Positions 34,958 to 64,000 of a stretch of DNA of 64,000 nucleotides are shown in pieces; the first letter of the stretch is position 1; every line of letters starts with the position of its first letter. The notes beneath the pieces were generated by a model, which made no database searches, was not told where the DNA came from, and saw nothing but the letters and a program-made list of their open reading frames with translations. The translations under genes were made by a program, and so were the position numbers. This stretch comes from Shigella phage vb_GEC_SH_GT: sequence record OR887633. The stretch is one strand, 5' to 3'.

Positions 34958-35428
34958 TTAATCATGTTTCCACACCCCATCGGTATTTGACCAAAGTCGC
35001 TGATTATCTGAACCTCGCCACAGCTTTTTGGTCGGAAGATTTTTCTCATACTTCCCATCAATAATAACATCAACATATTTAAGCATTTCTAGTTTTTTAA
35101 TATCTTCAAACTTGTACCCTGTCCACAACCAAATGCTTTTATTCGGATAAAGATTTTTTACTGTTTGAACAATGCAATGAACAGCATCTCGGTTATCAGG
35201 ATAAAGAGGGTCTCCTCCAGTTATAGTTAATCCTTCTATATAATCATTATTCAAACATTCAATTAATTGTTCTAGTGTTTCACCAGTGAATGGAACGCCA
35301 TTTCTAGCATTCCATGTTGATTTATTATAACACCCTTCGCATTTATGCAAACAACCTGTAACGAAAAGAACGACCCTGCATCCAGGGCCATTCACAAAAT
35401 CGCAGGGATAAAATCTATCGTAATTCAT
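34958..35428 (-). CDS. nrdG: anaerobic ribonucleotide reductase activase NrdG (radical SAM)
   Basis: 156 aa; CxxxCxxC cluster (CLHKCEGC). Confidence 0.9.
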   Translation of the reverse strand: MNYDRFYPCDFVNGPGCRVVLFVTGCLHKCEGCYNKSTWNARNGVPFTGETLEQLIECLNNDYIEGLTITGGDPLYPDNRDAVHCIVQTVKNLYPNKSIWLWTGYKFEDIKKLEMLKYVDVIIDGKYEKNLPTKKLWRGSDNQRLWSNTDGVWKHD

Positions 35429-37242
35429 TGGTGTTTAACCCTATGCATGATTTCTTTATTTTTGCCAAGATTAAATCCGCGCTCGTTCGGATTTCCTAAA
35501 TAGCCGCATGTTCTTCTTATGGTGTTCATCTTTTTAGGATCATTTTCTCCACAAATAGAACAAACAAATCCGTTTTCAGTAGGAGTCATTTCATGGGTAC
35601 TTCCACACGTAAAACATTTATCTACTGGCATATTAACACCAAAATAATCTAAATGTTGTGCAGCATAATCCCATACAGCCTCAAGACCTTTTAGGTTATT
35701 TTTCATATCAGGAAGTTCAACATAAGAAATGTGACCACCTGTCGCAATGAAATGATACGGAGCTTCGCGAGAAATCTTTTCAAACGGAGTAATATTTTCT
35801 TCTACTGAAACGTGGAAACTGTTAGTGTACCAGCCTTTATCGGTAACATCTTTTACACTTCCATATTTTTCGGTATCAAGTTTACAGAAGCGATAGCACA
35901 GGTTTTCAGCAGGAGTAGAATACAAACTAAAAGCAAAACCGGTTCTTTCAGTCCACTGCTTAAGACGAGCATTCATTTTAGTCAAAATTTCCTGTCCAAT
36001 ATCACGACCGACAAGAATATTCAATTCGTGAATACCAATGTATCCTAGGGATACTGAACTTCTACCGTTTTTAAATAACTCAATTATATCGTCATCAGGT
36101 TTAAGACGGACCCCGAATGCACCTTCTTGGTAAAGAATAGGAGCAACAGTAGCTTTAACTCCTTTTAAGGAACTAATTCTACACATCAAAGCTTCAAAAC
36201 ATAAATCCATTCGTTCATTGAACAATTCGGCAAATTTCTGTTCATTGAACTGTGTTCCAATATAAGAATCTAATGCAATACGAGGAAGATTCAGTGTTAC
36301 AACACCAAGATTATTACGTCCATCAAGAATTTCATTACCAGTCGAATCTTTCCATACGCCCAAGAAACTACGGCAACCCATTGGAGAAACAGGAATAGAT
36401 GAACCAGTGATAGCTTTATTGTTCTTAGCCGAAATGATGTCAGGATACATTCTTTTGCTTGCACACTCTAGAGCAAGCTGCTTAATATCATAGTTCGGAT
36501 CGTCTTTATAAAGATTAACACCTTCTTCAACGAACATAACAAGTTTAGGGAAAATAGGAGTTATCCCGTCACGACCAAGACCTTTAATACGATTTTTCAG
36601 AATTGCTTTCTGAATCATTCGTTCAGTCCAGTCAGTTCCCGTACCAAATGTAATTGTTACAAAAGGCGTTTGTCCGTTTGAACTAAAGAGAGTATTTACT
36701 TCATATTCATAAGCTTGGAACGCATCGTATACGTCTTTTTCTGTTTTAGACTGGGCGTAATTCAACGCATCAGCGATTTGCCATTTTTCTGCATCCTCAA
36801 TATGTTTTGCATAGGTGCGTTTAACATAAGGAGAAAGTACTTTGTCTACATTCGCAAAAGTCGTTCCACCGTATTGATGGGAAGCAACCTGTGCAGTAAT
36901 TTGTGCCATAATTGCAGTAGCAACGCCAATTGATTTAGGGGTTTCAATCTGTGCATTACCAAGCTTAAACCCGTTCTCAAGCATTCCTTTTAAATCTACT
37001 AAACAGCAATTAGTAAATGGAAGAGCAGGGGAATAATCAATATCATGGAAATGAATAATTCCGCTTTCATGCGCTTTCATAATAAAAGACGGGACCATAT
37101 TTTTGGCAATGTGTTTAGACACAATACCAGCCATAAGGTCCCGTTGAGTTGGAAAAACACGAGAATCTTTATTAGCATTCTCGTTTAAAAGGTCTTTATT
37201 AGTTTTATGAATCAATCCTTCAATTTCTTTTTCAATTGTCAT
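35425..37242 (-). CDS. nrdD: anaerobic ribonucleoside-triphosphate reductase NrdD
   Basis: 605 aa; C-terminal Zn site CFTCGS...CSIC and glycyl radical motif RTCGYLG; uninterrupted (no intron). Confidence 0.95.
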   Translation of the reverse strand: MTIEKEIEGLIHKTNKDLLNENANKDSRVFPTQRDLMAGIVSKHIAKNMVPSFIMKAHESGIIHFHDIDYSPALPFTNCCLVDLKGMLENGFKLGNAQIETPKSIGVATAIMAQITAQVASHQYGGTTFANVDKVLSPYVKRTYAKHIEDAEKWQIADALNYAQSKTEKDVYDAFQAYEYEVNTLFSSNGQTPFVTITFGTGTDWTERMIQKAILKNRIKGLGRDGITPIFPKLVMFVEEGVNLYKDDPNYDIKQLALECASKRMYPDIISAKNNKAITGSSIPVSPMGCRSFLGVWKDSTGNEILDGRNNLGVVTLNLPRIALDSYIGTQFNEQKFAELFNERMDLCFEALMCRISSLKGVKATVAPILYQEGAFGVRLKPDDDIIELFKNGRSSVSLGYIGIHELNILVGRDIGQEILTKMNARLKQWTERTGFAFSLYSTPAENLCYRFCKLDTEKYGSVKDVTDKGWYTNSFHVSVEENITPFEKISREAPYHFIATGGHISYVELPDMKNNLKGLEAVWDYAAQHLDYFGVNMPVDKCFTCGSTHEMTPTENGFVCSICGENDPKKMNTIRRTCGYLGNPNERGFNLGKNKEIMHRVKHQ

Positions 37243-54171: not shown

Positions 54172-54492
54172 TTATTCTTTAAATCTAATCAATTTATTCA
54201 TAGACTTTGAAACTTCCGCACGAATCTCATGTAGATTTTTGAGCTGTTCAAGACGCTGCGTATAGTAAGCAATTTCATCTTCTTCGAGACAGTCCTGCGA
54301 ATCTTCTTTAAGATAACGTGCATAGTCCTGGAAAGCTTTACGGACTACTTCCTGGAAGTCATCAAGACTTTGAATTTTCTTAGGAGCAACAGATACACGA
54401 CGAGGGGCAGTATAATACTCATAACCAAACCCTGCGCTTAATTGAGCCATTAGTATTTTTCCTCTGGTTGGAACACAGCACGGCAAGCCCAC
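54172..54492 (-). CDS. hypothetical protein (106 aa; vs.3 position)
   Basis: ORF. Confidence 0.45.
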
Positions 54493-54752
54493 ATACTTGC
54501 TTCTTTGAGTTTCGTTTTAGCAATAGTTAACTGATCGAGGCTTTCGGCGTAATTCTTCGCGAGTTCATCATCTTCACAGCTATCAAATGCTTCCCAAAAT
54601 TCATCGTATAAAGCATCAAAGATAAGTCCTAAACGAACTTCAGCATCTTTAATAGCATTTACTTTACCGATTTTTTCGTCGGTATGTGGCTTATAACCTT
54701 TAATATCTTCAATCATATTTGACTTCCTCACCAGTACATAAATCGTATTCAA
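54450..54752 (-). CDS. hypothetical protein (vs.4 position)
   Basis: ~90-100 aa ORF; occupies the slot I recall as vs.4 in T4; no motif recognised. Confidence 0.45.
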
Positions 54753-54930
54753 CTAAACGAATAGGTTCATGAATGCCATATCCCTGAACAGAAATTTCTG
54801 TCGTAGGATAAATTCCACTAATATCACCCATGTTCCATGCTTCGTTAAATTGCTGTTCGCCTGAATTACTAAACCATTCGGCGAAAGCATTTAGCGCATC
54901 TTCAGAACCTTCAATAATTATCTTTGCCAT
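54709..54930 (-). CDS. hypothetical protein (73 aa)
   Basis: ORF. Confidence 0.4.
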   Translation of the reverse strand: MAKIIIEGSEDALNAFAEWFSNSGEQQFNEAWNMGDISGIYPTTEISVQGYGIHEPIRLVEYDLCTGEEVKYD

Positions 54931-55292
54931 TACAAACTCTCGGTAAAGGTACGAGCGATAACATCGCGCTGCTGTTCCGGAGTCAGAGAGTTAAAGCGAA
55001 CTGCATAACCGGATACACGGATGGTCAGCTGCGGATATTTTTCCGGATGCTTAACTGCATCTTCCAGAGTTTCACGACGCAGAACGTTAACGTTCAGGTG
55101 TTGACCACCTTCAATTTTAACTGTAGGCTGTGGCTCAATTTCAATTTCACGGGCATGCAAACCATAGAAAATTTCTGGGTCTACAAAAGAGTCCTCTTTA
55201 AAGGTTTTAGAGACAATAATTCGTGCTTGAATACCATCTTCAAAATAAATAGTACCTTTATGTGTGCCTTCAAGAATTTGATATGCTTTCAT
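54930..55292 (-). CDS. autonomous glycyl-radical cofactor (GrcA/YfiD-like)
   Basis: 120 aa; C-terminal ...[42 protein letters not shown]... with glycyl radical motif RVSGYAV. Confidence 0.85.
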
Positions 55293-55299
55293 ATAAACC

Positions 55300-55629
55300 T
55301 CAATTAGAAAATAAATTTATCCAAGATTGTTCTTTAATTAAAAATGGCTCAGAATCATATGCCATTAAACTCTGTGTGATTAGTCCTTTAAAAGGCCCAT
55401 CAATAAATTCCATGGTAAAATATGGAATTTTATTCATTAGCCGTGCATTAGGAGCAGTACACAAAACTCTGCATCCTTTGAATACGCCTTTTTGTAATTT
55501 GTATTGCTTAGGATAAAATTCGCTCAAGACGTTGTTATTTGCCAAAATTTCAAAATGATTCACCAATTTATTTTTAATAGTTTTTGGCGAAAAATAAAGA
55601 TATTCGAAAAGCTGTGTGTCTGTCATCAT
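55300..55629 (-). CDS. hypothetical protein
   Basis: Track ORF trimmed to ATG overlapping upstream stop (ATGA). Confidence 0.45.
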
Positions 55630-56165
55630 TGCATTCCGATTACGAAAAACTGCGGACGAGTAATACCACCAATGCAACATTTAATATTACAGCAGTAGTG
55701 TACAGTGTCAATATGGACGCTATAAATCTTATCCATATCAGGAGATTTAACAGGCTCATCAATTATATACAAAATCCGCGAAAGCGATAAACCTCTGAAC
55801 TTGCTTCCTTTATTACCGATAAAACTACGGACAGAATCGGTAAATAAGCGGAATCGAATATCATCGCTAGAATAACGAGAAAATTCCTTTTTAATGTTAT
55901 TTGCAGAAATTTTAGCGTAAGCTGAAGTATTAGAAAGAACAATAACTGTTCCGCCATCATACAACCAATTAGCAGCAAAGTTAGTCACAGCAATTGATTT
56001 ACCAGATTGACGTCCACCATCTAGTCGAAGTGTGCAGTACTGTTTAAGTAATTCTTCAAATGGCGGGATATAATCGTTTTTACAAATTTCTTCTACTCTA
56101 GCATCAGAATGGTGTGTAAAAGCATTCATCAGGGATAGATAAGGACCAGTTAAAAATGTTCTCAT
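55626..56165 (-). CDS. hypothetical protein with P-loop-like motif
   Basis: Start trimmed to MRTFLTGPY after SD GAGAGAA; GGRQSGKS. Confidence 0.5.
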   Translation of the reverse strand: MRTFLTGPYLSLMNAFTHHSDARVEEICKNDYIPPFEELLKQYCTLRLDGGRQSGKSIAVTNFAANWLYDGGTVIVLSNTSAYAKISANNIKKEFSRYSSDDIRFRLFTDSVRSFIGNKGSKFRGLSLSRILYIIDEPVKSPDMDKIYSVHIDTVHYCCNIKCCIGGITRPQFFVIGMQ

Positions 56166-56318
56166 TTTATTCTCTCTAAATTTGGGCCATTCCATGGCGC
56201 ATGAATTGTCCATTTCTGTATTTACCCATTACCGCACTTGGGCTCGACCTTATTACAGGTTGGCGGGAATCCCTCATAGAATCATGAGGTCCAGCTTGTT
56301 CCCATATTTCTTATTTGC

Positions 56319-56792
56319 TTATTTGAATGATTTGACGTACTGAATAGAACCTTTACTATTCACGAAAGCGATTTTACCATTTTTATTATACATGGTAGCA
56401 GTACGCTGATAGCCATAAGTTTGTTTACCAGATTGATAACCAACTAATGCGAAATTATCTTCACCCATTTTATTCTGTTTAGAGCGAATACGTTCATGAC
56501 CGTGTGCCATAAGAACCTTAGCATCACCAGTTGAAATTGATCTACGAGTTTTTTCATCTTCAACTGTATTAACAAAGTCGTCAAATGAATCAAATTTAGC
56601 ATGGGATTTATTATACAGTTTTCCATCTACTGCATAATTATATCCCTGTACATCCATCTCAACTTCTGTACCATCATCCAATACAGCAGTAATTTTTTGA
56701 CCTTTTTTAAATTTCAAAAGATCAGTAAAAGATTCAGCAATAATTTGAGAATTAATAGCTGCTTCAGTGATAAATTCTTGATATGTTTTCAT
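56319..56792 (-). CDS. internal head protein (IP-like) with capsid targeting sequence
   Basis: N-terminus MKTYQEFITEAAINSQIIAE is a T4-type CTS cut by the prohead protease after the L-x-E motif. Confidence 0.6.
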   Translation of the reverse strand: MKTYQEFITEAAINSQIIAESFTDLLKFKKGQKITAVLDDGTEVEMDVQGYNYAVDGKLYNKSHAKFDSFDDFVNTVEDEKTRRSISTGDAKVLMAHGHERIRSKQNKMGEDNFALVGYQSGKQTYGYQRTATMYNKNGKIAFVNSKGSIQYVKSFK

Positions 56793-62065: not shown

Positions 62066-62142
62066 CTGGTCGAGGCAGTAGGGATCGAACCTACGACCCA
62101 GGACTTAGAAGGTCCTTGCTCTTCCTTCTGAGCTATGCCTCG
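62066..62142 (-). tRNA. tRNA-Arg (anticodon UCU)
   Basis: Hand-folded cloverleaf; T-arm GGUUCGAUCC; anticodon loop CUUCUAA; CCA encoded. Confidence 0.85.
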
Positions 62143-62146
62143 TATT

Positions 62147-62221
62147 TGGCGGACGTGATAGGATTCGAACCTATAACCAATCGCTTAACAGGCGATCGCT
62201 CTGCCATTGAGCTACACATCC
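62147..62221 (-). tRNA. tRNA-Asn (anticodon GUU)
   Basis: Hand-folded; acceptor GGAUGUG/CACGUCC; anticodon loop CUGUUAA; CCA encoded. Confidence 0.75.
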
Positions 62222-62225
62222 AAAT

Positions 62226-62312
62226 TGGTGGGGAGTGATGGAGTCGAACCACCCGAGTCGCAATGACAATGGATTTACAGTCCACACCGCTACCTCTACG
62301 GGATAACTCCCC
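62226..62312 (-). tRNA. tRNA-Tyr (anticodon GUA), long variable arm
   Basis: Hand-folded; anticodon loop CUGUAAA; 14-nt variable arm; CCA encoded. Confidence 0.7.
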
Positions 62313-62321
62313 AAATTAATT

Positions 62322-62396
62322 TGGTGGCCCTGGGTGGAATTGAACCACCATCTGGCGATTATGAGTCGCTTGCTTGAACCTTCCAGCTACAGGGCC
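62322..62396 (-). tRNA. tRNA with CAU anticodon (Met or lysidine-modified Ile)
   Basis: Hand-folded; anticodon loop CUCAUAA; CCA encoded; corresponds positionally to T4 tRNA-Ile. Confidence 0.75.
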
Positions 62397-62397
62397 T

Positions 62398-62473
62398 TGG
62401 TGCTGATTGACGGAATCGAACCGCCGACGTCCTCATTACAAGTGAGGTGCTCTACCTACTGAGCTAAATCAGC
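62398..62473 (-). tRNA. tRNA-Thr (anticodon UGU)
   Basis: Hand-folded; anticodon loop CUUGUAA; CCA encoded. Confidence 0.85.
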
Positions 62474-62478
62474 AAAAC

Positions 62479-62568
62479 TGGCGGAGGCGATAGGATTTGA
62501 ACCTATGAGTCGCCGGAGCGACTGCCGATTTTCAAGACCGGTGCATTAAACCACTCTGCCACGCCTCC
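62479..62568 (-). tRNA. tRNA-Ser (anticodon UGA), long variable arm
   Basis: Hand-folded; anticodon loop CUUGAAA; 18-nt variable arm; CCA encoded. Confidence 0.8.
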
Positions 62569-62570
62569 AG

Positions 62571-62644
62571 TCTCCGCGGCAGGATTTGAACCTGCGACAT
62601 TCTGCTCCCAAAGCAGACGCTCTACCAAACTGAGCTACACGGAG
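62571..62644 (-). tRNA. tRNA-Pro (anticodon UGG), CCA not encoded
   Basis: Hand-folded; anticodon loop UUUGGGA; ends at discriminator. Confidence 0.8.
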
Positions 62645-62654
62645 TAAATTAAAT

Positions 62655-62728
<74 letters not shown>

Positions 62729-62733
62729 AAATT

Positions 62734-62820
62734 TGGTGCGAGAAGTGGGACTCGAACCCACAAGGAAATCATTCCGCAGCATTTTAAGTGCTGTGCCTTT
62801 ACCAATTTGACCATTCTCGC
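62734..62820 (-). tRNA. tRNA-Leu (anticodon UAA), long variable arm
   Basis: Hand-folded; anticodon loop CUUAAAA; CCA encoded. Confidence 0.8.
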
Positions 62821-63545: not shown

Positions 63546-63833
63546 TTACCATTTATGATGATACGTATTTACGATACATTCAAGACCCAAAGGATTCTTG
63601 AAAATATCATATTCAAGAGGACCTTTTTCTGTTTCAATAAAGAAATCAAAATTTACTGTATTAAATTTACGGTCTTCCTTCACTAATTTAACCTGAGAAG
63701 ATGAACGGTCAATGTAAACCTTTTCAACTTCAAAACATGTTAAAATGCCATAATCATCAATCAAGGCTTTAGCTGCTTCTTGATCATATTTATATCCATT
63801 TTCAATGGATGATACTTTAGCATAAAGAATCAT
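63546..63833 (-). CDS. hypothetical protein (95 aa)
   Basis: ORF. Confidence 0.5.
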   Translation of the reverse strand: MILYAKVSSIENGYKYDQEAAKALIDDYGILTCFEVEKVYIDRSSSQVKLVKEDRKFNTVNFDFFIETEKGPLEYDIFKNPLGLECIVNTYHHKW

Positions 63834-63835
63834 TA

Positions 63836-64000
63836 TCAGCCTCTATCAACAATAGCATGAGTATGGGCATTTACGATTTGCCACCAGTCGAAACGATTGG
63901 AACCATAATCTGGTTTATTTTCATTTTCTTTAATGATATCACGCAGTTTATCTTCTGTTTCAGCATACGCAATTAAATCATCATATCCACCACAAGGATA
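63836..64000 (-). CDS. hypothetical protein, 5'-truncated by window edge
   Basis: Open frame running to the window end; C-terminus ...DWWQIVNAHTHAIVDRG. Confidence 0.4.
   Translation of the reverse strand, partial: YPCGGYDDLIAYAETEDKLRDIIKENENKPDYGSNRFDWWQIVNAHTHAIVDRG

Follow-up and report, generated by a model that had tools for sequence, protein, structure and literature searches.

A mosaic vs.6 gene in a T4-like Shigella phage: probable autonomous glycyl-radical cofactor for host PflB with a 3' half derived from Escherichia coli grcA

The DNA analysed here, hereafter the window, is the whole 64,000-nucleotide stretch taken from Shigella phage vb_GEC_SH_GT (sequence record OR887633). Positions 54930..55292 of its minus strand are occupied exactly, as the initial annotation had placed it, by a coding sequence of 120 codons plus a TAA stop, delimited by the list of open reading frames, the sequence itself, the alignment with phage T4 and the phrog_1209 profile. 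The start codon ATG lies at 55292..55290 and the stop codon at 54932..54930, and the product has 120 amino acids and 13.8 kDa. A GAGG Shine-Dalgarno sequence, read from the sequence at 55298..55301 on the minus strand, precedes the ATG by 5 nt and shares bases with the TGA that ends the preceding gene, vs.7 (55300..55302), while base 54930 is common to the stop of this gene and the ATG of the following one, vs.5. The gene, which corresponds to vs.6 of T4, thus lies in a tightly packed, co-directional array with the order vs.8-vs.7-vs.6-vs.5-vs.4, and the same synteny is found in T4, slur03 and PhAPEC2. A consensus scan for a promoter or terminator belonging to vs.6 itself gave no excess over shuffled sequence (19 versus 18.3 promoter-like and 5 versus 3.0 terminator-like matches). 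Over the 6 kb surrounding the gene, the window is 97-98% identical to Tequatrovirus genomes.

The neighbouring reading frames show some features of their own. The mechanical call for vs.7 (55300..55680, minus strand) yields 126 amino acids from the first ATG, whereas the T4 annotation has 109, and phrog_2049 covers the 109-residue version (55303..55629), which the reading frame in the vs.8 position (55626..56213) would overlap by 4 nt. Two genes downstream of vs.6, the reading frame in the vs.4 position (54450..54752, minus strand; 100 amino acids by mechanical call) matches the Acb2/Tad1 hairpin domain PF24729 of Pfam (E 1.4e-19), the family of the phage sponges that take up cyclic-nucleotide immune signals. 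A further reading frame, of 157 amino acids (56319..56792, minus strand), is situated between the positions of vs.8 and denV, where it is present in slur03 and has no counterpart in T4; it matches phrog_3155, 'internal virion protein', with E 2e-101.

In T4 (NC_000866) the gene between vs.7 and vs.5, at 63557-63919, is vs.6, which bears the annotation 'autonomous glycyl radical cofactor GrcA'. Both proteins have 120 amino acids and share 119 of them, together with 358 of 363 nucleotides. The single amino acid that differs, among five nucleotide differences, is H73 in T4 and R73 in the window, the latter being the residue of E. coli GrcA (R80); compared with T4 vs.6, the window gene also departs from E. 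coli at three further synonymous sites towards the 3' end, gene nt 330, 351 and 354. The phrog_1209 profile is matched over its full length (residues 1-120, E 1.2e-62), and this match and the vs.7-vs.6-vs.5-vs.4 order are together those of the T4-like vs.6 family. An exact-sequence look-up identifies the T4 protein (NP_049730.1) as UniProt P13316, GRCA_BPT4, which falls in the same 90% cluster as the window protein. We equate vs.6 with the protein called Y06I in the literature because it is the sole GrcA-annotated gene in the T4 region inspected and because UniProt lists it as the autonomous glycyl radical cofactor of T4. Judged by alignment and gene order, then, the window gene is the ortholog of T4 vs.6 (Y06I, GRCA_BPT4), and hence an already known gene whose T4 counterpart has been biochemically characterised in the literature since 2001. 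In the comparison of T4-like genomes by Nolan et al. (2006), vs.6 is one of only 11 uncharacterised ORFs that were conserved throughout, and these authors speculated on a role in nucleotide metabolism.

The exact window protein is found on 187 public contigs under the name autonomous glycyl radical cofactor. Identical or near-identical proteins of 120 amino acids have also been deposited as 'Escherichia coli' or 'Salmonella enterica' on contigs of 165-169 kb, which are probably T4-like phage genomes within bacterial assemblies, and a fragment of 60 amino acids in the protein cluster, labelled Enterococcus faecalis and located on a contig of 410 bp, is probably a contamination.

The C-terminal half of the protein is a copy of a host domain. 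Residues 61-120 are identical to residues 68-127 of E. coli GrcA at all 60 positions; the initial annotation had put the match at some 65 residues, and it is the identity that stands and the extent that shrinks, the preceding residues 50-60 being weakly similar. The expected glycyl-radical motif RVSGYAVRF is present at residues 92-100, and its predicted radical glycine, Gly95 (codon GGT at 55008..55010, minus strand), is equivalent to G102 of GrcA and G734 of PflB according to the alignments and PMC12338860. Residues 61-101 match the Pfam family Gly_radical (PF01228, E 2.8e-18). Among solved structures, the best match is E. coli GrcA itself (PDB 6OWR, E 8.6e-42, residues 22-120 of vs.6), followed in the phmmer search by the C-terminus of PflB, residues 697-759 (E 5e-26).

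A comparison with the known members of this group places vs.6 more precisely. With E. coli GrcA/YfiD (P68066, 6OWR) it shares the 60 C-terminal residues, 55 of the 60 corresponding codons, the motif and a similar overall size; it differs in a N-terminal half that is 7 residues shorter, with scattered identities and no detectable DNA similarity, and in its location, the host gene residing at the ung-grcA locus and the phage gene in an early-region array. Residues 58-120 are homologous to the C-terminal domain of PflB (PDB 2PFL / 1H16, residues 697-759), but vs.6 is a stand-alone protein of 14 kDa without the catalytic barrel of 690 residues. The short GrcA2 and GrcA3 proteins (NCBIfam NF008341 and NF038360) match in the glycyl-radical domain (E 6.8e-27 and 5.6e-31), yet they have about 80 amino acids and no N-terminal half, and vs.6 scores below the cutoffs of both families. 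The top NCBIfam match is TIGR04365 (IPR011140), the GrcA equivalog, with 153.3 bits against a cutoff of 170, a shortfall due to the divergence of the N-terminal half. By this cutoff vs.6 would be a GrcA-like relative and not an equivalog, although RefSeq nonetheless names the T4 protein GrcA. Three traits of the GrcA/YfiD type are found in vs.6, namely a stand-alone size of about 120-130 amino acids, the RVSGYAV motif with its radical glycine and a copy of the PFL C-terminus, and these comparisons support its classification as a GrcA-type autonomous glycyl-radical cofactor.

The N-terminal half has a different history. Codons 1-60 (55113..55292, minus strand) are AT-rich, with a GC3 of 0.20, and gene nt 1-178 have no blastn match in 5426 complete E. 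coli genomes. Their counterpart in YfiD is the disordered half on which binding to cleaved PFL depends, and protein similarity to GrcA residues 28-67 is weak: HMMER alignments to GrcA reach back to residues 20-22 of vs.6, with several gaps and scattered identities (at AR.IV.K and F.ED positions). Among T4-like phages, this half is kept, with a dN/dS of about 0.1-0.2 for codons 1-60 between most genera and of 0.42 against Karamvirus. The dN/dS ratio is well below 1 in both halves of vs.6, indicating purifying selection on each of them. The 5' half is thus old, phage-specific and selectively maintained, and the proposal that the gene is a captured host module holds for the 3' half, which is host-derived at the DNA level, and not for this one. 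In YfiD, the half corresponding to this diverged one has been implicated in the recognition of cleaved PFL, so that the phage protein could differ from GrcA in its binding or regulation, and any peculiarity of the phage in recognition or timing could sit in the N-terminal half.

The 3' half is a patch of E. coli DNA. Spanning gene nt 179-353 and codons 61-118 (54940..55114, minus strand), it encodes the structured glycyl-radical domain that equals YfiD 68-125 and the C-terminal region of PflB. Its longest exact substring shared with E. coli grcA, computed directly, is a perfect run of 151 nt (54964..55114, minus strand) against grcA nt 200-350, and the 49 codons from 61 to 109 are identical to those of grcA at every base, synonymous sites included. 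The BLAST search that had been suggested as a check on the resemblance bears it out, for gene nt 179-363 match grcA with 97.3% identity in every one of the 5426 complete E. coli genomes searched by blastn. Base composition follows the same division: GC3 is 0.20 in the 5' half and climbs to 0.43, equal to that of E. coli, in the 3' half, and the GC content is 0.49 in the patch but 0.34 both in the remainder of the gene and in the window. No E. coli homology was found beyond the vs.6 stop codon. When the 64-kb window was compared as a whole with the 5426 genomes by megablast, the grcA patch was the only chromosomal match. The other E. coli match fell in a tRNA-Tyr region (about 62223..62315), with 90.5% identity to a tRNA-Tyr on an O111:H8 plasmid record; this region belongs to a cluster of nine tRNA genes (62067..62820, minus strand) for Arg, Asn, Tyr, Met(CAT), Thr, Ser, Pro, Gly and Leu.

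The same segment of grcA shows 84% identity and a dS of 1.0 between E. coli and Salmonella, and 93% identity between E. coli and Citrobacter amalonaticus, whereas the phage copies of the patch differ from E. coli by a dS of 0.05-0.12. On the scale set by the divergence of E. coli and Salmonella, this makes Escherichia the donor and the transfer a recent one. Across the 3' part, an identity of 95% or more to E. coli grcA is reached by some 505 phage records. Nine copies of the patch were aligned, five of them from Mosigvirus (PhAPEC2, AV110, RPN187 and ChristianSchoenbein among those named) and the rest from Tequatrovirus, including the window, T4 and fPS-90. All nine have the left breakpoint in common, at nt 178/179, and within the patch they show only private single-base differences; their last 2-4 codons carry phage-type synonymous states that are also found in RB16 and Slopekvirus. 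BLAST matches starting at nt 155-162 in some Mosigviruses could have been taken for a different conversion tract, but the alignment attributes them to extension through low-identity sequence, with the same breakpoint. PhAPEC2 and the window share 62-88% identity in the flanking genes and 89% in the 5' half of vs.6, whereas they share 97-100% in the patch, whose conservation between the two genera is 96-100%. The patch must hence be younger than the split between Tequatrovirus and Mosigvirus, and gene conversion from host to phage after that split is well supported by these comparisons. The shared left breakpoint fits equally a single conversion followed by exchange among phages and several conversions that ended where nucleotide homology stops.

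A published description of the vs.6/grcA mosaic was not found in the searchable literature, outside which lie the key older papers (Wagner 2001, Miller 2003 and Bowman 2019), and we do not claim newness for the mosaic as an evolutionary detail.

GrcA-like homologs are widespread in other phages, occurring in about 1500 phage records, 845 of which cover at least 80% of the gene. Those of RB16, Slopekvirus, Jiaodavirus, Karamvirus, Krischvirus and T5-like, Aeromonas and Vibrio phages resemble vs.6 in combining a variable N-terminal half with the RVSGYAVRF domain, but differ from it in lacking the E. coli patch, their 3' halves being 74-89% identical to E. coli grcA DNA. The vs.6 gene of the E. 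coli phage RB16 (260-622 of its locus) encodes a C-terminal 60-mer identical to that of E. coli GrcA at 60 of 60 residues, in DNA that is 83% identical and saturated at synonymous sites (dS of about 2). The exact host match of RB16 hence appears to be maintained by selection and not to stem from recent transfer. Similarly, the Klebsiella Slopekvirus proteins and that of phage ER45 match the Klebsiella-type 60-mer (LLDAVEH) at all 60 positions and Jiaodavirus at 59 of them. Such matching is not general: 5-12 of the 60 residues depart from the host type in Karamvirus, Krischvirus and T5-like phages or, when the Aeromonas phage is included, 3-12 from the closest host type. The complete matches of the RB16 and Slopekvirus type, in RB16 despite saturated synonymous sites, indicate that several lineages are under selection to fit the protein of the host exactly. 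Conversion at the DNA level is demonstrated only for phages of E. coli: with Salmonella grcA, an identity of 95% or more is reached by no phage record, and the same holds for the grcA of Klebsiella sp., to which 17 records are 90-95% identical; the latter was the Klebsiella gene compared, the 80 loci returned including neither of the true host species, K. pneumoniae and K. aerogenes. The location of the gene varies as well. In two unrelated or distant phages, Bf23 (T5-like; 2320-2688 of its locus) and Aeromonas phage avDM1 (1317-1685), it lies inside the tRNA cluster, flanked by tRNA genes, whereas in T4-like coliphages it resides in the vs array.

The function of such proteins is known from E. 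coli and T4. According to PMC8683613, which summarises the work of Knappe and co-workers (Wagner et al. 2001, pmid 11444864), two proteins of about 14 kDa, YfiD of E. coli and Y06I of T4, are radicalised by the PFL-activating enzyme and restore PFL that has been cleaved by O2. The same source names them as the only two validated spare-part proteins and states that YfiD 61-127 duplicates PFL 693-759 and that YfiD 1-60, though disordered, must be present for binding to cleaved PFL to be measurable and for the radical to be installed efficiently. The G102 radical of GrcA, in turn, passes to C419 of PflB (PMC12338860). Because vs.6 contains an exact copy of YfiD 68-127, its docking and radical chemistry should match those of YfiD.

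Taken with these reports, the evidence makes it very likely that vs.6 is a phage autonomous glycyl-radical cofactor for host PflB whose 3' half has been overwritten by E. coli grcA DNA. During infection at low oxygen, host PflB that meets O2 would be cleaved at its radical glycine G734 and lose its C-terminal tip. The C-terminal domain of vs.6, equal to GrcA 68-127 and to the fold of PflB 693-759, would dock into the damaged enzyme, host PFL-activating enzyme PflA would install a radical on G95, and this radical would be passed to Cys419 of PflB, restoring the reaction that turns pyruvate into acetyl-CoA together with formate. From docking onwards these steps are described in vitro in the literature for the T4 protein and YfiD, and sequence identity extends them to the window protein. 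For the phage, the benefit would presumably be a sustained supply of ATP and acetyl-CoA, and also of formate. In evolutionary terms, an old and complete grcA homolog of T4-like phages would have kept its own N-terminal half, while in the E. coli-infecting genera Tequatrovirus and Mosigvirus, once these had diverged, homologous recombination would have put E. coli grcA DNA in the place of the 3' half.

A more far-reaching extension of this scenario strikes us as possible, if doubtful. The catalytic half would be kept identical to that of the host by recent and possibly recurrent conversion, yielding a chimera of a phage recognition half and a host-exact radical domain under selection for host matching. 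E. coli DNA would then repeatedly overwrite nt 179-353 in a phage that degrades host DNA, and the amino acid matches of RB16 and Slopekvirus would be due to selection favouring a spare part suited exactly to PflB and PflA of the current host, with recombination acting as a shortcut.

Several other explanations have to be weighed against the role of spare part for PflB. It seems unlikely, but merits attention, that vs.6 modulates or hijacks host PFL, its N-terminal half altering the docking (to intact or inactive PflB, or to TdcE) or titrating PflA, so that the flux of pyruvate and formate is re-routed. The N-terminal half is indeed unlike that of YfiD, yet conserved and under purifying selection in T4-like phages, and in YfiD this half controls how cleaved PFL is bound and how efficiently the radical is installed (PMC8683613). 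The host has a GrcA of its own, beside which a mere second copy would seem superfluous, and GrcA is also reported to activate full-length inactive PflB in vivo (Kammel and Sawers 2022; PflB-G734A data in PMC12338860). Against this, Y06I is reported in PMC8683613 to behave like YfiD in vitro, and the altered specificity that the explanation supposes is hypothetical. Since host gene expression is shut off by T4, the phage copy may, moreover, simply replace a host GrcA supply that has stopped.

The initial annotation had linked vs.6 to the glycyl-radical enzyme NrdD and its activase NrdG, both of which the phage does encode in the same window (35425..37242 and 34958..35428, respectively, both on the minus strand). 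As a spare part for NrdD, vs.6 would be activated by NrdG and replace the C-terminal tip of NrdD after cleavage by oxygen. NrdD is a glycyl-radical enzyme too (Pfam Gly_radical, E 5.4e-26; Pfam NRDD, E 4.5e-171), the role in nucleotide metabolism speculated by Nolan et al. (2006) would agree with such a link, and spare parts for glycyl-radical enzymes other than PFL remain conceivable according to PMC8683613. The two proteins, however, share little: BLASTP aligns vs.6 and NrdD with an E of 2.5 and leaves the radical loops unaligned. The NrdD tail (...CSICGENDPKKMNTIRRTCGYLGNPNERGFNLGKNKEIMHRVKHQ, CSIC...RRTCGYLG) has a Cys-rich zinc site ahead of the radical loop, while vs.6 has no cysteine at all and hence could not form a zinc site of the NrdD type; it does not carry a copy of the NrdD radical domain with the zinc-site cysteines, and is instead identical to GrcA at 60 of 60 residues and close to PflB 697-759. 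The genes, besides, lie 18 kb apart from nrdD and nrdG, and the biochemistry reported for Y06I in PMC8683613 is that of PFL and PFL-AE. A direct role for vs.6 in the repair of NrdD is thus very improbable; the broader proposal, repair of glycyl-radical enzymes damaged by oxygen, survives for PFL, for which it is reported in the T4 ortholog. In a group of class III reductases that includes E. coli NrdD, formate is the overall reductant, as stated in PMC11226230 with reference to Mulliez (1995), and the link between vs.6 and NrdD is probably at most indirect, through the formate made by PFL.

Finally, the notion that the gene is a neutral passenger, recently captured host DNA without function for the phage, to which the 175 nt of near-identity to the host and the host-like GC content might lend themselves, can be set aside as extremely improbable, given that the patch has been substituted, in frame, for the homologous part of a gene that was already there and intact, that the reading frame is intact in hundreds of phages of several genera (the 845 records noted above), that dN/dS is low in both halves and that vs.6 belongs to the conserved set of Nolan et al. 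(2006).

The gene itself, present in hundreds of sequenced T4-like phages, adds nothing new, but the identification of its partner as host PflB and PflA, and not phage NrdD and NrdG, provides a useful correction. The mosaic structure of vs.6 constitutes a compact natural case of gene conversion from a host to a lytic phage, with a left boundary that can be placed to the base, and the patch could serve as a marker for the frequency with which T4-like phages recombine with the chromosomes of their hosts. More generally, as a very likely cofactor for PflB, vs.6 would provide a clean example of a phage that maintains an enzyme of host central metabolism, PFL, under fluctuating oxygen.
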